Shown: positions 10,713 to 61,257 of the stretch, piece after piece | Layout: every line of letters starts with the position of its first letter | Numbering within the stretch: the first letter of the stretch is position 1 | Assembly: GCA_964450865.1 (NCBI GenBank) | Contig: CAYVHB010000014.1 | Location: 2,676 to 66,675 of the forward strand | DNA: 64,000 bases | Direction: 5' to 3' | Source of the DNA: an uncultured Oscillospiraceae bacterium | GTDB lineage: Bacteria; Bacillota; Clostridia; Saccharofermentanales; UBA5734 | Notes under the pieces: model-generated | Databases searched by the model: none | Seen by the model: the letters and a program-made list of their open reading frames with translations, nothing else | What the model was told of the DNA's origin: nothing | Position numbers and translations under genes: made by a program

Positions 10713-10803
10713 TGGCGGAGAGAGTGGGATTTGAACCCACGGTAGACTCTCATCTACGCCGGTTTTCAAGACCGGTGCCATCAGCCAGCTCGACCATCTC
10801 TCC
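10713..10803 (-). tRNA. tRNA-Ser (anticodon UGA), CCA encoded
   Basis: Reverse complement GGAGAGATGGTCGAGCTGG...CCGGT-CTTGAAA-ACCGG, long variable arm, GGGTTCAAATCCC, TCTCTCC-G-CCA. Confidence 0.97.
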
Positions 10804-11034: not shown

Positions 11035-11337
11035 TTATTCGATGGTCATGAAGTCGGCAAAGCCGGTGACGTCAAAGATCTCCTTGATGGTTTCGCTGCA
11101 GCCGGTAATTTTCATGGTGGTACCGATGGCGTTGACCTTCTTCTGGGCGGAGAGCAGGACGCGCAGGCCGGAGCTGCTGATGTATTCCAGATCGGCCAGG
11201 GCAAAGACCAGGTGGAAGCGGTCCTGCTCGTAGACCTTTTTCAGTTCTGCTTCCAGTTCGGGTGAGGTAATGGTGTCCAGGCGTCCGGTCAGGGCGAACA
11301 TAATGACGTCGTTTTCCTGGGTTTTGTTAATTTTCAT
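11035..11337 (-). CDS. STAS-domain anti-sigma factor antagonist
   Basis: LTGRLDT..SPELE...LEYISSSGLRVLL...IFDVTGF, with the phosphoacceptor Ser motif intact. Confidence 0.92.
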   Translation of the reverse strand: MKINKTQENDVIMFALTGRLDTITSPELEAELKKVYEQDRFHLVFALADLEYISSSGLRVLLSAQKKVNAIGTTMKITGCSETIKEIFDVTGFADFMTIE

Positions 11338-11505: not shown

Positions 11506-12114
11506 TCAGAAGGCTTTCTTGACGATCATTTCCACACCGCCAGCCGTAACGGTGACCACGACGTCGTCAGCAAAGCGCTCGATGATTGATTTCTCCAGAC
11601 CGGTAGCCTCAAGGTCGGCCGCCCGCTCTTCAGCGGGTGCTTCCTGATTGTAAAGGGCCATGGACCAGGTCAGGGACGAACGCATCACCGGCATATAGGC
11701 TGCGCCCATGAAGCCATAGGCCATGGTCGAATAGAGCTCGGGCGTGTCAACCAGGGTGGGATCTGCCGCGAATAAACCGGCAAACAGATAGCTGATCTTG
11801 TTCTTGAGGCCTTTGGGCGGGGTGCTGCGCTTGGCCGACGAGACGGCGATGAAAGCCTCGCGGGCTGTCTCCGTCACGGAAGCCTTGACGGTTATGTGGA
11901 TATCAAATGCATTGTCAGTGCGTTCGAGCCAGAACAGTCCTTCGCTCTGCTTGAGAACATCCGTTGTCATCGCGATCGATTCTTCGGCCAGCAGGCGCAG
12001 GATATTGGTGTTCTTTGTATTAAGACCACAATAAACAGCGGCGCGTTCGACTTCGTCCAGGATATTGGCGATTACCTGCACATCCGCGCTGACAGGAAAG
12101 AGATCTGTTTTCAT
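11506..12114 (-). CDS. Hypothetical protein, degenerate RsbW/anti-sigma-like HATPase fold (inferred)
   Basis: LRLLAEESIAM resembles the N-box helix. C-term GLEKSIIERFADDVVVTVTAGGVEMIVKKAF resembles the RsbW C-terminus. Co-oriented with the STAS gene. Confidence 0.6.
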   Translation of the reverse strand: MKTDLFPVSADVQVIANILDEVERAAVYCGLNTKNTNILRLLAEESIAMTTDVLKQSEGLFWLERTDNAFDIHITVKASVTETAREAFIAVSSAKRSTPPKGLKNKISYLFAGLFAADPTLVDTPELYSTMAYGFMGAAYMPVMRSSLTWSMALYNQEAPAEERAADLEATGLEKSIIERFADDVVVTVTAGGVEMIVKKAF

Positions 12115-12357
12115 GAAGCCTCCTCATAGTTTGTTTTTGTTCGTTTTCCATCAGGCCGGGCCCGACCCAGCCTGGTTTTACCGTTATTATACCAGTTAAA
12201 TAGACTGATCGGATCTATTCTACTCTTTTCTGGGCTTACCGGCAAGGTAGGGTGATGAATTCCATGAATTTTGTGATATAACTCTGTACAAAAGCCTGTA
12301 AATCAGCATATAATCTACCTGAATAACCACAAAGGATTCATCACTTGCGGAGGATTT

Positions 12358-13212
12358 ATGGTGAAACTGCCCGGATTGACTTCCCTGGTGCTTGTACTGC
12401 TGATTGTTACCCTGGTCTTGCCGCTGGCCGCTTGTGGCGGCAATAAGGGACCGGTTGCACCGCTGGATGTCACCGATTTGCGCGGCCATCGCATCGGGGT
12501 CCTGATGGCCTGGAGCCCGGACTATATTCTTGAGGATTATGGCGGCATTGACCTGGTCCGCTTTGACGGTCTCAGTGATGCCCTGCTGGCCTTGAAGTAT
12601 CGGCGGATCGAGGCTTTTGCTATGGATACCATCGATGCCAAGTACCTGTGCAGCGTCCAGCCTGGTTACCAGATGCAGGAAACCCCCGTCGGGATGGACC
12701 GCTATGTCACCTTTGTCAATAATAACCGCACCGATCTCCTGGTGCAGTTCAATGAATTTGCCGCCGGATTCATGAATAGTGATGAATACCGTGACCTGCA
12801 TGAGCGGGTCATGAATGTCGATAACGGCGAGTTTGTCAACAATGATATCCCGGCCCATACCGAGGGGCCGCTGATCAACGTCGCCATTGACGCGGCCGCG
12901 ATGCCTTACACCTCCTATGACTTTGCATCGGACCGTTATATTGGCAGCGACGTCGAGGTGATCCAGATGTTTGCCTGGCAGTATGGTTACCGGCTAAATT
13001 TTATCGACAGTGATTATAATGGTTCGGTCATGAATCTGACGTCCGGCAAGGCCGACCTGTTTATCTGTGCCCTGTCGGAGGCTTATCGTTTTGAGGTGGA
13101 ATTGACCCATAAAGCGCTGGTCAGTGATCCATATTTTTCGACGTCGATCCTGCTCGTCGGGATGGGTGACCGCACGGCAATGAGCTTTGATAATCCGGAC
13201 CTCGGCTACTGA
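12358..13212 (+). CDS. Polar amino-acid ABC substrate-binding lipoprotein (SBP_bac_3), circularly permuted
   Basis: Lipobox LAAC. The GlnH C-half motifs (DLRGHRIGV, KYRRIEAFAMD) precede the N-half motifs (VAID...PY...GSDVEV...GKADL...SDPY). Confidence 0.85.
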   Translation: MVKLPGLTSLVLVLLIVTLVLPLAACGGNKGPVAPLDVTDLRGHRIGVLMAWSPDYILEDYGGIDLVRFDGLSDALLALKYRRIEAFAMDTIDAKYLCSVQPGYQMQETPVGMDRYVTFVNNNRTDLLVQFNEFAAGFMNSDEYRDLHERVMNVDNGEFVNNDIPAHTEGPLINVAIDAAAMPYTSYDFASDRYIGSDVEVIQMFAWQYGYRLNFIDSDYNGSVMNLTSGKADLFICALSEAYRFEVELTHKALVSDPYFSTSILLVGMGDRTAMSFDNPDLGY

Positions 13213-13290: not shown

Positions 13291-13989
13291 ATGGACTCGT
13301 TTTTCAAGTATCTGAATGACCTGTTGTATGCCAGCCTGATCTATGAAAATCGCTACCTGTTCTTGCTGAAAGGGCTGGGCAATACGCTGCTCCTGACGGT
13401 TTTTTCCTTCCTGCTCGGCACCTTGTTCGGCTGCCTGTTTACGCTGGGCAATCTGCGCGGCGGCAAACTCGTCCGCAAGCTGCTGCAGGTGCTGACGCAG
13501 TTCCTGGTGCGCATTCCCAGCCTGGTCCTGCTGATGGTTTTCTCCTATATTATTTTCGCCGAGGTCAACATGAGCGGCCTGATCCTGGCCATCCTGGCTT
13601 TTACGATGAAAACCGCGTCTTATATGAGCGATATTTTTACCTCGGCGATCCAGTCCCTTGATTCGGGCGAGGTCGAGGCGGCCCGTTCGCTGGGCTTCTC
13701 CAAGCTGAAGGCCTTTTTCTATATTACGTTGCCCCAGGCGGTGCAGGTGGCCCTGCCGGTGTACAAGAACCAGTTCATCACGACGCTGCAGGAGACTTCG
13801 ATTGTTGGTTTCCTGGCCATCCAGGACCTGACCCGGGCCAGCAATATCATCGCCAGCCGGACCCTGGATCCCTTTATTTCCCTGATCATTGTCTCGGTGG
13901 CCTACCTGACCATCGGCTGGGTGACGAATCTGCTGCTATCGCTCCTGGAACGCTCCCACCATATCAGTCCTGCGGAGGTTGCTGCATGA
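13291..13989 (+). CDS. Amino-acid ABC transporter permease (HisM/GlnP family)
   Basis: LLKGLGNTL, EAARSLG EAA loop, ITLPQA, LQETSIVGFLAIQDLTR. Confidence 0.92.
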   Translation: MDSFFKYLNDLLYASLIYENRYLFLLKGLGNTLLLTVFSFLLGTLFGCLFTLGNLRGGKLVRKLLQVLTQFLVRIPSLVLLMVFSYIIFAEVNMSGLILAILAFTMKTASYMSDIFTSAIQSLDSGEVEAARSLGFSKLKAFFYITLPQAVQVALPVYKNQFITTLQETSIVGFLAIQDLTRASNIIASRTLDPFISLIIVSVAYLTIGWVTNLLLSLLERSHHISPAEVAA

Positions 13990-15068
13990 TCCAGTTGAAG
14001 AATCTGGCCAAGTCGTTTGGTACTAATGTCATTTTCCAGAACGTGAATTATGAGATCAAGAAAGGCGACGCCGTGGTCATTATTGGCCCGTCCGGCTGTG
14101 GCAAGAGCACCATGCTGCGCTGTATCAATGGCCTGGAGAAGCCTACGGGCGGCGAGGTCTGGGTGAACAACCAGAACATCGCCGATCCGAAGGTGGCCAT
14201 TGACAAGATTCGCAGCAAGATGGGGATGGTTTACCAGTCCTTCAACTTGTTCAGCCACAAGAATGTCCTCGAGAACGTGATCGCCGCGCCCATGCTTGTC
14301 AATCGCCTGGGCCGCAAGGAAGCGATTGCCGAGGCCATGCAATATCTGCGGCTGGTCGGAATGGAGAACCGCGCGTTTCATATGCCCAACCAGCTGTCCG
14401 GCGGTCAGAAACAGCGGGTGGCGATTGCCCGTTGCCTGGCGATGCATCCGGAGGTCATTTTATTCGATGAGCCAACGTCCGCGCTCGATCCGACGATGGT
14501 CGACGAGGTGCTCGGCGTTATCCAGCGCCTGATCAAGGACAAGATGACCTGCGTGATTGTCACCCATGAGATGTCCTTTGCCCAGAAAGTAGCCACCCAG
14601 GTTATTTACCTGGATGACAGGGGCATCTACGAAACGGGCACGGCCGAGCAGATCTTTGCCCGGCCGCAGCGGGAGAAGACCCAGGCGTTCATTCACAAGC
14701 TGCGGGTCTTTGAGCGGACGATTACACCGGTCAATGCTGACCTGTACAGTTTCATGACGGAGGTTCGCTCCTATTGCGCCCAATATGGCTTTACCAATCG
14801 CCAGCTTGATACAGTCAACCTGATTTATGAGGAGCTGATTTATCCGCTGGTTGCGGATCTGGCACGGAATAAGGCTATTATCTTCCGTTTGCGCTGCAAT
14901 ACGGCCGGGGAGATGATCGAGGTAATATTGACCGATCCGCGGGCGGCCGGCGACTGGCTGACGGCCGAAGGGGTCGACGAGCTGGGCGTAAAAATTATCC
15001 GCAGCATGGCTAGGGAAATGGAATCGACGCTGAAAGACGGTGTGGCCGAGCTGCGGATGCTGCTGTAA
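13986..15068 (+). CDS. Amino-acid ABC ATPase (GlnQ-like) fused to a C-terminal RsbW-like domain
   Basis: GPSGCGKST, LSGGQKQR, ILFDEPTSALD, VTHEM. About 120 extra residues: VNLIYEELI...VILTD...DELGVKIIRSMA. Confidence 0.9.
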   Translation: MIQLKNLAKSFGTNVIFQNVNYEIKKGDAVVIIGPSGCGKSTMLRCINGLEKPTGGEVWVNNQNIADPKVAIDKIRSKMGMVYQSFNLFSHKNVLENVIAAPMLVNRLGRKEAIAEAMQYLRLVGMENRAFHMPNQLSGGQKQRVAIARCLAMHPEVILFDEPTSALDPTMVDEVLGVIQRLIKDKMTCVIVTHEMSFAQKVATQVIYLDDRGIYETGTAEQIFARPQREKTQAFIHKLRVFERTITPVNADLYSFMTEVRSYCAQYGFTNRQLDTVNLIYEELIYPLVADLARNKAIIFRLRCNTAGEMIEVILTDPRAAGDWLTAEGVDELGVKIIRSMAREMESTLKDGVAELRMLL

Positions 15069-15083: not shown

Positions 15084-17417
15084 GTGAAAAAAGTGAAAAC
15101 GCCGGCGAAATCAGATGTCCTGATTGTACGACTACTGTCCCGGACCGTATGCCTGGCCCTGGTCCTGGCCTTGCTGCTGGCCGCACCGCTGGCCCTCGGT
15201 GGCTGTGCCCTGCAGCCGGCGGCCAAAGTGACGCTGGGCAGTGTCTATGACATGAACGCTGACAATTATATTATTGGTGTGCCGCAGGGCGCGGCGTCGA
15301 TGGTGGCCGTGGAAGCAGCCTTTCCCAAGGCCAGGATCGAGTATTTCCAGAGCAACCACGACGGTTACCTGGCCGTTCGCTCAGGCAAGATCGACGCTTA
15401 TGCCTATGACAAGGATCAGATGACCTTTGCCGCCGCCAACCTCGGCGATGTGGAGCTGCTGGATGAGGTGATCCATTCCACCCCCGTGGTGGCGGGGATC
15501 AATCCCCAGCGGACTGATCTGGTGGATCCGGTCAATGCCTTTATTGCCCAGATCAAGGCTGATGGCACTTATGCTGACATGTTCGACCGCTGGGTGACGA
15601 AAGCGACCGGGGTATTGCCCAGCATCCCTGATCCGGCCAGTCCGGTCGGGACTTTGCGCGTCGGTACAGCCGGAACGGTTGAGCCTTTCAGCTACTATGA
15701 CAAGAATCAGCAGCTTTGCGGCTTTGATATTGAGCTGATCCGGCGCCTGGCCCTGTTCATGAATGTGCGTGTTGAGCTGACCGCCCTGGATTTCGGGCCG
15801 ATGCTGGCCGCCCTGGAGGCCGGCAAGCTTGACCTGGTTATTTCCAATCTGCACGATCAGCAGCAAGTCCGGGATATTGTCCTGCTGTCTGATCCGTATA
15901 ATGTCTCGCGGACGGTGATGATGGTCAAAAAGGGCCGCTTCCAGCTGGCCGCCGGCATTCGCAGCATTGCCCAGCTGGCCGGCAAGCAAGTCGGGGTGCT
16001 GACCGGCAACATGCTCGACCAGATCCTGGCCAAGAGTGTGCCATCGGCCGTGCCGGTTTATTTCAATACCTATCCGGACCAGATCACGGCGATCAAGACT
16101 GGCCGCATTGACGCGATGATCCTGGACACGCCGATTGCTGTCCTGTATGCCGCCAATTCCGAGGGCGTATCACTGGTCCAGGAAAAAATGCAGAGTGATG
16201 ACTATGCCCTGGCCCTGAAGCTGGAGAACCAGGCGCTGTATGCCAAAGTCGACGCCGTTGTCGCGGCCCTGAAGGCTGACGGCACGCTGGACCAGATGGC
16301 GAAAAAATGGCTGGAAGGGCCAGCGGAGCAGAAAGTGCTGCCAGACCTGCCCCTGTCCGGCGCGAATGGCACCTTGCGCTTTGGCACCAGTTCCCTGACG
16401 GAGCCGTTTGCGTATCTCAATATCCAGAACCAGATCATCGGCTTCGATGTCGAACTGGCGCGGCGGATTGCCAGTGAGCTGGGCATGAACCTGGAAATTG
16501 TCGACATGGATTTCGCGGCCCTGATCCCGGCCTTGCAGTCCGGCAAGGCCGACATGATTGGTTCCTGTATCACCGTTACCCCGGAACGGTCCAAAATGGT
16601 GCACTTTACCCCCAGTTACTACGCCGGCGGTATCTCGGCGATTGTGGCCGCCCCCTCTGCTGGCAATACCGGTAATGGTAACGGCCAGTCCGGCCCGGCT
16701 GGCTTGAGTTTTTACCAGCGCCTGATCAATAGCTTCAACCGGACTTTTGTGATCGAGTCGCGCTATAAGCTGATCCTGCAGGGTCTGTGGGTGACGGTCC
16801 TGATCTCGGTTATGGCCGCGATCATCGGTTCGATCCTTGGTTTCCTGCTCAGCCTGATGCGCCGCTCCCGCAACAAATGGGCTAGTATCCCGGCCCGGAT
16901 CTACATCAAGGCCATGCAAGGCACGCCGATTGTCGTCCTGCTGCTGATTCTGTATTACATTATTTTCGGGAAAGTCAACATCAGTGCCATTGTCGTGGCC
17001 ATTCTGGCTTTTGCCCTGAACCTGGCCGCCTATGCCGCGGAAATCATCCGTTCCGGGATCGAGGCGGTGGACCGGGGACAGATCGAGGCTGCCAGTGCCC
17101 TGGGCTTTACAAAACTCCAGGTTTTTACACGCATCACCTTTCCCCAGGCCGCCCGTTATATCCTGCCTGTTTTCAAGGGGGAATTGGTTACGACGATCAA
17201 GATGACTTCGGTGGTCGGGTATATAGCGATCCAGGACCTGACGAAAATGAGCGACATCATCCGCAGCCGGACCTATGAAGCGTTCTTCCCGCTGATTGCG
17301 ACCGCGCTGATCTATTTCCTGGTGGCCGCTGCGCTGACATCGCTGCTGACCCGCCTGGAGTTCCGGATTGATCCGAAACGGCGCAAGCGGGCCATCAAGG
17401 GGGTGAGCAGCCGATGA
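15084..17417 (+). CDS. Lipoprotein with two tandem permuted SBP_bac_3 domains fused to an amino-acid ABC permease
   Basis: LALGGC lipobox; two copies of KADGT...W followed by LRxGT...EPFxY...GFD(I/V)EL. C-terminal permease with EAASALG and ITFPQA. Confidence 0.9.
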   Translation: MKKVKTPAKSDVLIVRLLSRTVCLALVLALLLAAPLALGGCALQPAAKVTLGSVYDMNADNYIIGVPQGAASMVAVEAAFPKARIEYFQSNHDGYLAVRSGKIDAYAYDKDQMTFAAANLGDVELLDEVIHSTPVVAGINPQRTDLVDPVNAFIAQIKADGTYADMFDRWVTKATGVLPSIPDPASPVGTLRVGTAGTVEPFSYYDKNQQLCGFDIELIRRLALFMNVRVELTALDFGPMLAALEAGKLDLVISNLHDQQQVRDIVLLSDPYNVSRTVMMVKKGRFQLAAGIRSIAQLAGKQVGVLTGNMLDQILAKSVPSAVPVYFNTYPDQITAIKTGRIDAMILDTPIAVLYAANSEGVSLVQEKMQSDDYALALKLENQALYAKVDAVVAALKADGTLDQMAKKWLEGPAEQKVLPDLPLSGANGTLRFGTSSLTEPFAYLNIQNQIIGFDVELARRIASELGMNLEIVDMDFAALIPALQSGKADMIGSCITVTPERSKMVHFTPSYYAGGISAIVAAPSAGNTGNGNGQSGPAGLSFYQRLINSFNRTFVIESRYKLILQGLWVTVLISVMAAIIGSILGFLLSLMRRSRNKWASIPARIYIKAMQGTPIVVLLLILYYIIFGKVNISAIVVAILAFALNLAAYAAEIIRSGIEAVDRGQIEAASALGFTKLQVFTRITFPQAARYILPVFKGELVTTIKMTSVVGYIAIQDLTKMSDIIRSRTYEAFFPLIATALIYFLVAAALTSLLTRLEFRIDPKRRKRAIKGVSSR

Positions 17418-18580
17418 AGATCCAGGTATCCCATCTGGTCAAGCAGTTTGGTTCAAATGTTGTGCTCAAGGATGTGAATGTCGAGATCGGCCGTGGCGAG
17501 ATTGTCTCGATCATTGGGCCGTCGGGGACCGGCAAAAGCACGCTGTTGCGCTGTATCAATCTGCTTGAGACGCCCTCAGGCGGTTCGATCCAGATTGATG
17601 GCGTCGATCTCCAGGCGCGCGGGACCAATATCCATAAGCTGCGCCAGAAAATGGGCATGGTTTTCCAGTCGTTCAACCTCTTCGCCCATCTGATGGTGAT
17701 TGAGAATATCATGCTCGGCCCGCTTGATCTGCTGAAAATGCCACCACAGACAGCCTATAATGAGGCGATGCAGCTGCTGGGCCAGGTTGGCCTGATCGAC
17801 AAGGCCCTCGCCTATCCGGATGAGCTTTCCGGCGGCCAGAAGCAGCGGGTGGCCATCGCCCGGGCCCTGGCGATGCATCCGGAGATCATCCTGCTCGATG
17901 AGCCGACCAGCGCCCTGGATCCGACGATGATTGGCGAGGTTCTGGCCGTGCTGCGCAATCTGGCCCGGGCCGGCCTGGCCATGATCATCGTTACCCATGA
18001 AATGAAATTTGCGGCAGAAATATCAACACGGGTCCTGTACATGGACGAGGGAATTATCTACGAGGACGGACCGCCGGCCCAGATTTTCCAGCATCCGCAA
18101 CGGGAGAAAACCCGGGCTTTTGTTAAGCGGATCAAGAGCTTTACGACGGAGATCCGCTCGCGGACCTTTGACTTTTACGGTCTTGTGTCCCAGATCGAGG
18201 ACTTTGGCCGGCGCCAGATCCTGGAGCTGCACCAGATTCATGACATCCAGCTGGTCCTTGAGGAACTGGTTGTTTTGCAGCTGCTGCCGCACCAGACCGG
18301 GAGCGAGCCGTATGTCAAGATCAATGTCAGTCACGTGGAAAGCAGCGGCGATATTGAGATCTCGCTGAATTATGGCGGACCGGCCTGGAATCCGCTGGCG
18401 TCCATGACGACTGAGCCGGCCGCCAGCCCAGCCGCCGCGGAGCCGGCCGCCAGCCCAGCCGCTGCGGAGCCTGGCGACGACCTGTCGCTACGGCTTTTGC
18501 GGCATAAGATCAAGACAGCCAGCTATTCTTATGCTGAAGCCGACGGAATGAACACGCTGCTCATCCTGATCCGGGGCTGA
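17414..18580 (+). CDS. Second amino-acid ABC ATPase (GlnQ-like) fused to a C-terminal RsbW-like domain
   Basis: GPSGTGKST, LSGGQKQR, LLDEPTSALD. C-term DIQLVLEELV...ISLNYGGPAWNPL...SYSYAEADGMNTLLI. 27-bp duplication at 18413-18466 (EPAASPAAA x2). Confidence 0.9.
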   Translation: MKIQVSHLVKQFGSNVVLKDVNVEIGRGEIVSIIGPSGTGKSTLLRCINLLETPSGGSIQIDGVDLQARGTNIHKLRQKMGMVFQSFNLFAHLMVIENIMLGPLDLLKMPPQTAYNEAMQLLGQVGLIDKALAYPDELSGGQKQRVAIARALAMHPEIILLDEPTSALDPTMIGEVLAVLRNLARAGLAMIIVTHEMKFAAEISTRVLYMDEGIIYEDGPPAQIFQHPQREKTRAFVKRIKSFTTEIRSRTFDFYGLVSQIEDFGRRQILELHQIHDIQLVLEELVVLQLLPHQTGSEPYVKINVSHVESSGDIEISLNYGGPAWNPLASMTTEPAASPAAAEPAASPAAAEPGDDLSLRLLRHKIKTASYSYAEADGMNTLLILIRG

Positions 18581-60354: not shown

Positions 60355-61257
60355 CTAGTAAATGAGTTCCGGATTGTCAAAGGTAATCTGGGAACGGTCG
60401 CTGATGACCACCAGCACAATGGATGTAGAAAAATACGGCTCACTGATCATGGCCTTGTGGGTCAGTTCCACTTCGAAGCGATAAGCCTGGGAAAGGGCCA
60501 GAATACGCAGGTCGGCCTTGCCTGTCGTCAGATTGAGAATACCAGCCTCGTAATCACCATCGAGAAAATGAATCTGGTAGCCGTAGCGCCAGGCAAAATG
60601 TTCAATGATTTCCACAGAACTGCCGAAAAACTCACCGGTCTGCAAATCAATTGACGCATACGGGTAGGCCAGGGAATTCGTTGCCACATTCAGAACCGGG
60701 CCGGTGGTGTGTTTGGGCCACTCGCGCCGGACGTACTCGCCACGATCGACCGCCATTATCCGCGCATAAATATCCTGGTACTCCTCGCTGGTCCGGAAGT
60801 CGGCTGCAAATTCATTGAATTGCTGCAAGATATCCTGACGTTTATTGGTGACGAAGATGATATAGTCATCAAAGGCTACTGGTTCTTCCAGTATTTTGTA
60901 GCCTGGATGCATGCGGCAGAAATTTTTTGCATTGATAATATCCATGGCCAGGGCCTCGATCCGTCTGTATTTCAAGGCCAGGATCGCATCTGACGTGGTA
61001 TCGTAGCGTTGCAGCTCGATGCCAGGAACATCTTCAAGAATGTAATCCGGACTCCAGGACATCAGAACCCCGATACGCCGGCCCGCCAGATTATGAACGT
61101 CCAGCGGTGTAACCGGTGCTGGCTGCTTGCCGGCGCAACCGGTCAGCGGATAGAACAGCAGCGTGAGCAACAGCATCAGGATGAGCAGGAACAGCCGGCC
61201 CTGTTGATATAAAGTGGCAGCGGGCGAACTGACCCGCTGATTGACTGTGCTGTACAT
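60355..61257 (-). CDS. Orphan circularly permuted SBP_bac_3 lipoprotein, paralog of 12358-13212
   Basis: LTGC lipobox. Shared blocks WSPDYILED, LALKYRRIEA, YRFEVELTHKA, PYFSTSI. Confidence 0.88.
   Translation of the reverse strand: MYSTVNQRVSSPAATLYQQGRLFLLILMLLLTLLFYPLTGCAGKQPAPVTPLDVHNLAGRRIGVLMSWSPDYILEDVPGIELQRYDTTSDAILALKYRRIEALAMDIINAKNFCRMHPGYKILEEPVAFDDYIIFVTNKRQDILQQFNEFAADFRTSEEYQDIYARIMAVDRGEYVRREWPKHTTGPVLNVATNSLAYPYASIDLQTGEFFGSSVEIIEHFAWRYGYQIHFLDGDYEAGILNLTTGKADLRILALSQAYRFEVELTHKAMISEPYFSTSIVLVVISDRSQITFDNPELIY

Follow-up and report, generated by a model that had tools for sequence, protein, structure and literature searches.

A 64,000-nucleotide stretch of contig CAYVHB010000014.1, assigned to an uncultured Oscillospiraceae bacterium and called here the window, contains a gene (P0001; Table 1) whose product is a natural circular permutant of a polar amino-acid binding protein, with the two halves of the chain in the reverse of the canonical order. 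The permutation, which the original prediction had proposed from the sequence, is confirmed by split database matches in reversed order, a re-permutation test, a confident AlphaFold2 (AF2) model and the junction lengths found across a wide family of related proteins. We place at roughly 80% the probability of the fuller reading, in which P0001 is a two-lobed binding lipoprotein of permuted order that belongs to a PAAT-type importer encoded together with the next two genes.

When P0001 was compared with the sequences in the Protein Data Bank (PDB), residues 35 to 149 aligned to positions 110 to 224 of the Thermotoga maritima arginine-binding protein (ArgBP; 6svf) with an E value of 1e-7, and residues 179 to 267 aligned to positions 18 to 101 of the same chain (E value of 0.011), with a whole-sequence E value of 9e-14. 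The N-terminal half of P0001 thus corresponds to the canonical C-terminal half and the C-terminal half to the canonical N-terminal half, that is, the second block of GlnH comes first and the first block last. The same split was seen with NCBIfam, where ArtJ covers residues 38 to 92 with profile positions 121 to 176, while TIGR01096, GlnH and ArtI cover residues 172 to 272 with profile positions of about 22 to 120. The first block also matches a profile of the C-type part (residues 37 to 150; E value of 3e-15). Reversed split matches had been expected against Pfam PF00497 (SBP_bac_3) as well, but this profile covers one half only, residues 173 to 271, with positions 1 to 94 of 132 (38.8 bits against a cutoff of 26.4). 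The paralog P0003, which lies in the same window, also exceeds the PF00497 gathering threshold (35.6 bits).

No single collinear full-length alignment to SBP_bac_3 was obtained with the native order of P0001. Only a construct re-permuted in silico, in which residues 168 to 272 are followed by residues 33 to 160, gave one: PF00497 matched it in a single collinear stretch (6 to 223, profile positions 1 to 128 of 132) at 45.5 bits compared to 38.8 bits for the native order, and 6svf aligned in one piece (14 to 222 with 20 to 224; E value of 1.6e-17). The complementary comparison comes from P0063, a typical stand-alone member of the family rather than P0001 itself, whose only long collinear match in the PDB (residues 40 to 269) spans the boundary between SBD1 and SBD2 in the GlnPQ tandem 6h30 (chain 98 to 324), the classic signature of a circular permutation. 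No solved structure with the permuted order was found in the PDB. As for the new linker, predicted at about 20 residues, its length is 16 residues when measured between profile boundaries, or residues 153 to 171 when measured between elements of secondary structure.

The AF2 monomer of P0001, computed from an alignment of 60 sequences, is compact over the whole chain, with a mean predicted local distance difference test score (pLDDT) of 91.2, a predicted template modelling score (pTM) of 0.84 and an alternating beta/alpha pattern in both blocks. The model predicts an ordinary two-lobed “Venus flytrap” fold in permuted order, in which the first block builds lobe 2 and ends in the lobe-1 C-terminal helices, and residues 172 to 269 form the core of lobe 1, with beta-1 to beta-4 and its helices. 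In this model the new termini fall at the point at which hinge strand 1 normally passes into lobe 2, which leaves one covalent crossover between the lobes instead of two. The chain continues into a C-terminal tail modelled at low confidence (about 59 to 80 over roughly residues 270 to 284), the motif of which (F/L-D/N-N-P-D/E-hydrophobic-G/I-Y) is kept in all five members of the P0001 clade. Other stand-alone permuted proteins stop 0 to 6 residues past beta-4.

TABLE 1 Features of the P0001 gene, its product and related genes in the window (nucleotide positions are those of the window; residue numbers are those of the protein concerned)
Feature	Position	Strand	Basis or detail
P0001, circularly permuted SBP_bac_3 lipoprotein, 284 amino acids (aa), ATG start	12358-13212	+	open reading frame (ORF) list; PF00497; AF2
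Promoter-like site TGTACA, 18-nt spacer, TATAAT, 5' of the P0001 gene	12285-12314	+	consensus scan, 10 of 12 matches
Shine-Dalgarno-like GGAGGA, just 5' of ATG 12358	12349-12354	+	direct sequence reading
Putative lipoprotein signal peptide (residues 1-25) and lipobox L-A-A-C, Cys26	12358-12435	+	sequence MVKLPGLTSLVLVLLIVTLVLPLAAC; predicted helix 7-24
First block, residues 35-152: lobe 2, return hinge strand, two lobe-1 C-terminal helices	12460-12813	+	6svf chain 110-224; AF2
Alternating strands and helices (lobe 2) ending in long return strand 112-120	residues 45-120		AF2
Two helices, lobe-1 C-terminal helices	residues 125-152		AF2
New linker from ancestral C-terminus to ancestral N-terminus, residues 153-171	12814-12870	+	AF2, no regular secondary structure
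Second block, residues 172-270: beta-1 to beta-4 and helices of lobe 1	12871-13167	+	Pfam 173-271; 6svf chain 18-101; AF2
Helix 241-249 (EAYRFEVEL) with 4-residue insertion and invariant Tyr243-Arg244	13078-13104	+	HMMER; AF2
C-terminal tail, residues 271-284, DRTAMSFDNPDLGY, conserved in P0001 clade only	13168-13209	+	clade comparison
Permease, 232 aa, sole membrane subunit of first importer	13291-13989	+	PF00528 E 4e-21; NCBIfam polar amino-acid permease models
ATP-binding cassette (ABC) ATPase, 360 aa, C-terminal extension of about 120 aa	13986-15068	+	PF00005 E 1e-37; GlnQ model E 1.7e-82, residues 1-238
777-aa protein, binding domains fused to permease	15084-17417	+	
Permuted binding domain 1 of 777-aa protein, residues 45-285	15216-15938	+	C-part 64-171, N-part 189-283, 15-residue junction
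Permuted binding domain 2 of 777-aa protein, residues 293-523	15960-16652	+	C-part 294-410, N-part 428-522, 16-residue junction
Permease domain of 777-aa protein, residues 543-777	16710-17417	+	PF00528 E 1.2e-22
Second ABC ATPase, 388 aa, C-terminal extension	17414-18580	+	Walker A and signature motifs in translation
Paralog P0003, 300-aa permuted lipoprotein, no adjacent transporter genes	60355-61257	-	59% identical to P0001 over 93% of length

The permuted order is found in four domains of the window, as had been predicted: P0001, the paralog P0003 and two consecutive units of the 777-aa protein. In P0003 the C-type block again precedes the N-type block with a junction of 16 residues, and Pfam covers only residues 189 to 289 (profile positions 1 to 95). 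The 777-aa protein reads C, N, C, N and permease, the permease following lobe-1 beta-4 after a low-confidence linker of about 20 residues, and P0001 aligns collinearly to its first binding domain. A search with the binding region of this protein retrieved about 65 clusters of roughly 750-aa proteins, all of them arranged as C-half, full domain, N-half and permease, from several phyla (Trichlorobacter lovleyi, Candidatus Formimonas warabiya, Lentisphaerae, Planctomycetota, Prolixibacteraceae, Desulfacyla and Atopobiaceae), as well as shorter proteins, either stand-alone (about 270 aa) or with a single unit fused to a permease (about 500 aa). In public records these proteins carry generic names. 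The permuted arrangement is not unique to P0001, which is a divergent representative of a large cross-phylum set of such domains, the majority of them fused to permeases.

An exhaustive profile search extended this set, its best 150 hits holding 1 to 7 matched units in proteins of up to 2,009 aa. The profile used (alignment A1, 506 positions) included permease columns although it was meant for the binding domain only, and its total counts (86,835 at E≤1e-3 and 6,173 at E≤1e-30) include plain permeases and canonical fusions and are not a family size; the best 150 hits are usable. A single canonical sequence used as a probe for the arrays missed many C-type blocks and was replaced by separate C-block and N-block profiles. 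With these, 286 related sequences were scanned, among which PAAT-type permeases are preceded by 1 to 7 copies of the permuted (C,N) unit. The unit is present once in 24 proteins, twice in 106, three times in 75, four times in 26, five times in 3, six times in 2 and seven times in 1. Serial arrays of 3 to 7 permuted domains before one permease domain occur among P0140 to P0286 (for example, P0140 with 2,009 aa, P0141 with 1,758 aa and P0146 with 1,771 aa), well beyond the one or two seen in characterised importers of the GlnPQ type.

The lengths of the junctions in these proteins indicate which stretch folds as a unit. The C-to-N junction inside the permuted unit measured 16 ± 1.3 residues (range 13 to 28; n = 603), whereas the N-to-C junction between the units of an array varied from 0 to 294 residues (median of 11, standard deviation of 26; n = 366); in canonical single proteins the N-to-C junction, which is hinge 1, has 3 to 10 residues (n = 41). 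One junction is constrained and the other free, and therefore the permuted pair of C-half and N-half is the folding unit. Single-unit forms, both stand-alone and fused to a permease, also exist. The alternative of a domain swap, in which lobe 1 is assembled from the N-type block of one chain or unit and the C-type block of a different one, would make the stand-alone form an obligate dimer or oligomer and would pair the end half-domains of arrays across transporter protomers. T. maritima ArgBP, the closest solved relative, is described as a domain-swapped dimer in PDB entry titles and in the literature, and the 9 residues between the two units of the 777-aa protein fall inside the canonical hinge range of 3 to 10. 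We nevertheless consider swapping unlikely, given the compact P0001 monomer, a C-to-N junction as tightly conserved as expected within a domain, an N-to-C junction incompatible in its variation with a conserved hinge, and the absence of a canonical domain in the canonical-order stretch of the 777-aa model.

That stretch is also the subject of a nested arrangement, restricted to the 777-aa protein, in which its middle N-then-C part (residues 190 to 411) would be an ordinary domain inserted in an outer domain split between the first C-type and the last N-type block. Pfam and NCBIfam indeed report residues 191 to 411 as one full-length canonical match, and with 9 residues the junction resembles a hinge. 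In the AF2 model of the 777-aa protein (pLDDT of 87.6), on the other hand, the canonically ordered middle stretch gave root mean square deviations (rmsd) of 15 to 26 Å and TM-scores of 0.32 to 0.43 against canonical structures of 24 to 34% identity in Foldseek, with about 17 Å and 0.38 against those of 34% identity. Such poor superposition despite the identity argues that no canonical domain is formed there. The junction statistics also point to the permuted unit, single-unit forms exist, and in an array of seven units nesting would have to pair ends separated by about 1,500 residues, so that we regard this arrangement as very improbable. The permease domain of the 777-aa protein, by contrast, resembles ArtQ in 4yms (TM-score of 0.79 and 38% identity in Foldseek).

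Whether P0001 is an intact gene was assessed from its signals, its relatives and the independent recovery of its sequence. The start codon at 12358 is preceded by a putative ribosome-binding site, and GTG 12361 is an alternative start. The promoter-like site is no more than suggestive, the number of promoter-like sites in the region being no higher than in shuffled sequence. The N-terminus, MVKLPGLTSLVLVLLIVTLVLPLAAC, follows the pattern that we take to be that of a lipoprotein signal, with Cys26 as the putatively lipidated residue, and a lipobox-like ...[SG]-C (L-T-G-C or L-S-A-C) stands at the same place in the 4 full-length relatives (P0005, truncated at its 5' end, falls outside this comparison). 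Contigs that were assembled independently in four metagenome studies of wastewater and bioreactors cover the gene without gaps; three of them show no differences and the fourth differs by substitutions only. The whole window likewise recurs, at full word identity, in metagenomes of wastewater, bioreactors and activated sludge from several studies. A scan of the contigs of species-representative genomes with P0001 gave no orthologous locus, but only four loci in metagenome-assembled genomes of Clostridia that matched the signal-peptide region (residues 7 to 36).

The relatives of P0001 form four clusters with 59 to 65% identity to it, which share its order, linker length, tail, stop position and key residues, as well as the clade-specific motifs WSPDY, Y-R and FDNPDLGY. 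The clade is small (5 clusters found among 5.8 billion), and its linker has 16 residues in 5 of 5 proteins, the modal value over the 603 permuted units, which points to a shared origin rather than to an independent permutation. A non-functional remnant, cut from a gene with tandem domains, would show exactly this order, since such a cut of a tandem repeat yields it, and a chimeric contig might mimic it; the small size of the clade would fit either. Against both stand an ORF that has a putative ribosome-binding site, signal peptide and lipobox of its own, a stop codon whose position all relatives share, relatives that are intact and keep the clade motifs at this level of identity, a second intact paralog within the same window, contigs of four studies that span the gene and a confident AF2 model. 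The remnant or artefact is thus largely refuted, and we give it only a marginal chance.

P0001, the permease and the ATPase that follow it, the 777-aa fusion and the second ATPase succeed one another on the same strand, and therefore two amino-acid importers appear to be encoded side by side. In the first of them, P0001 would be tethered by its N-terminal lipid and would trap its ligand between the lobes, along a chain that runs from lobe 2 through the return hinge strand and the lobe-1 C-terminal helices to a fixed linker of about 16 residues and the beta-1 to beta-4 core. The ligand, an alpha-amino acid or a close derivative, would be held by Ser240, Arg244 and Asp90. After closing on it, P0001 would dock on the permease dimer in the manner of canonical binding proteins and hand the ligand to the homodimeric downstream permease, uptake being driven by the GlnQ-like ATPase. 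The swapped order should leave the docking surfaces unchanged. Its effects would fall on the hinge, where a single covalent strand remains, and on the site of tethering, because the N- and C-termini are both placed on the hinge side. More speculatively, the 14-residue tail of the clade may lie against lobe 2 and make up in part, non-covalently, for the missing crossover. Binding, closure, docking and transport are proposed here by analogy with the established behaviour of the family.

The original prediction had also read an insertion near the carboxylate-binding Arg as the sign of a non-standard ligand. The insertion was found, as four extra residues relative to both canonical and other permuted proteins: HMMER opens a 4-residue gap in T. 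maritima ArgBP opposite YRFE, and other permuted proteins show the same gap. The non-standard ligand was not established and is a possibility rather than a finding, because conservation extends to a Tyr-Arg pair, a Ser and the Asp that binds ammonium. The pair Tyr243-Arg244 is clade-invariant and located in the first turn of the helix after beta-3, four residues past Ser240, the conserved counterpart of the canonical amino-acid-binding Ser, so that the spacing from Ser240 to Arg244 is 4 compared to 5 between the canonical Thr/Ser and Arg. Asp90, the counterpart of the Asp that binds the alpha-ammonium group, is nearly invariant across all permuted proteins. The WSPDY loop of lobe 2 (residues 52 to 56) is likewise invariant in the clade; its Trp (A-W-S-P-D-Y) stands at a place that G-S/T-T usually takes in canonical proteins. 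Judging from these residues, the ligand of P0001 is most likely an alpha-amino acid or a close derivative. A more precise ligand assignment from the residues of the binding site was rejected, since the alignment around the Arg helix is ambiguous.

Several observations weigh against P0001 as an ordinary importer receptor of permuted order. The column of the canonical carboxylate-binding Arg holds Leu249 rather than Arg244 in the HMMER alignment, the invariant Arg244 sitting one position off in the same helix, beside the 4-residue insertion, and the binding site may be altered. Foldseek matched the P0001 model to class II binding proteins of the PDB with TM-scores of only 0.25 to 0.41 and 8 to 18% identity, pairing its lobe 2 with lobe 1 of the canonical proteins. 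These low scores are explained by the sequential alignment that Foldseek makes, and the fold identity is neither confirmed nor refuted by them. An AF2 run on a monomer cannot test for the domain swapping considered above. A search of RNA runs gave no run with the P0001 gene. Finally, two members of the clade lack neighbouring transporter genes, P0003 in the window and P0004 (locus L005, 8001 to 8837), the latter flanked by an NlpC/P60 gene on one side and by the gene of a large, repeat-rich secreted protein on the other, and therefore a transport role is not assured for the clade as a whole. These two orphan proteins may feed a transporter encoded elsewhere or may have another role.

Both halves of P0001 are homologous to the canonical SBP_bac_3 (PF00497) proteins of class II, cluster F, such as GlnH, HisJ, LAO/ArgT, ArtJ and T. 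maritima ArgBP, with which it shares the secondary-structure pattern, a PAAT permease and a GlnQ-like ATPase as partners and the positions of the Asp and Ser of the site. It differs from them in the swapped halves, the 16-residue linker, the termini at hinge strand 1 and the single inter-lobe crossover, as well as in the 4-residue insertion at the Arg helix and the conserved 14-residue C-terminal tail. The 777-aa protein is built like the GlnPQ of Lactococcus lactis (6h30, PMC8025302): in both, a signal sequence is followed by two SBP_bac_3 domains and a permease domain, and the ATPase is encoded by a gene of its own. However, the domains of GlnP are canonical (N-then-C), whereas the units of the 777-aa protein are C-then-N, with the permease after lobe-1 beta-4 instead of the C-terminal helix.

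Natural permutation is already known in other classes of binding proteins and has been described twice as far as we found. TpMglB-2 (Tp0684) of Treponema pallidum is a circularly permuted glucose-binding lipoprotein for which a “c” subclass was proposed (PMC4990184). Like P0001, it is a natural permutant, a lipid-anchored ABC binding protein with the permuted segment within one lobe, but it has the sugar fold of class I, cluster B, its permutation adds a fourth crossover where P0001 loses one, and there is no sequence relationship between the two. The second case is the glycine-betaine-binding OpuAC of Bacillus subtilis, related to ProX by a permutation reported by CPSARST (PMC2395249). This is, as in P0001, a natural circular permutation within class II, although in a compatible-solute subfamily with no significant sequence similarity. 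OpuAC structures are the top-ranked Foldseek matches of the P0001 model, and the matches are weak (TM-scores of 0.36 to 0.40 and rmsd of 10 to 12 Å). Full-text literature searches gave no published permutation in polar amino-acid binding proteins or in fusions of the GlnPQ type, only engineered permutants and the two cases above; their coverage of subscription journals is incomplete and a prior description is possible. We consider the chances about even that the permuted unit represents an unrecognised subclass spread over several phyla (a class II “c,” by comparison with TpMglB-2), with a single covalent hinge strand, that it serves as the building block of importers with 1 to 7 receptors and that the free lipoproteins are its offshoots.

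Two-lobed binding proteins are the standard model of ligand-induced domain closure and the scaffold of many biosensors that have been permuted by hand. A natural and widespread permutant that lacks one of the two hinge crossovers offers a ready comparison for hinge mechanics. If a flytrap with a single hinge strand is functional, the kind of cut that sensor engineers make artificially already exists in nature, and these proteins would be a natural test of the share of the second hinge strand in opening and closing. The permuted units also explain the “half, full, half” database matches on hundreds of transporter proteins, and they change the parsing and modelling of importers with up to seven receptor domains. 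In annotation, such genes should be described as complete permuted domains and not as partial SBP_bac_3 hits or suspected fragments.

Some features of the neighbouring genes are also worth describing. In the 777-aa protein, domain 1 has Q-Q-Q-V in place of the T-x-E-R motif at residues 258 to 262 (window positions 15855 to 15869), with an Arg one position later. This motif, which contains the carboxylate-binding Arg, is kept in 49 to 51 of 54 homologs, and domain 2 retains T499, E501 and R502, so domain 1 may have changed its specificity or lost binding. The ATPases of both importers extend about 120 to 150 aa past the nucleotide-binding domain at the C-terminus. The extension of the first gave a weak, sub-threshold match to HATPase_c_2, an anti-sigma-factor-like domain (E value of 0.017), over nearly the full length of the profile, and a Pfam scan of the second gave no match. 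Just upstream, on the other strand, are a gene for a STAS domain (11035 to 11337; E value of 3e-19) and an unassigned ORF of 202 aa (11506 to 12114). Together, the ATPase extensions and the STAS gene raise the idea of a partner-switching type of control of the transporter.

A small contig from run X5 joins position 13917 to 14266, omitting 348 bases over the permease/ATPase boundary, with only 22 letters on its shorter side. It is probably a fragment of the assembly graph, because long contigs from runs X1, X4, X5 and X10 pass through this point uninterrupted. The sole tRNA gene of the window, a tRNA-Ser with anticodon TGA, lies at 10713 to 10803 on the reverse strand, and the ORFs that overlie it on both strands are spurious.

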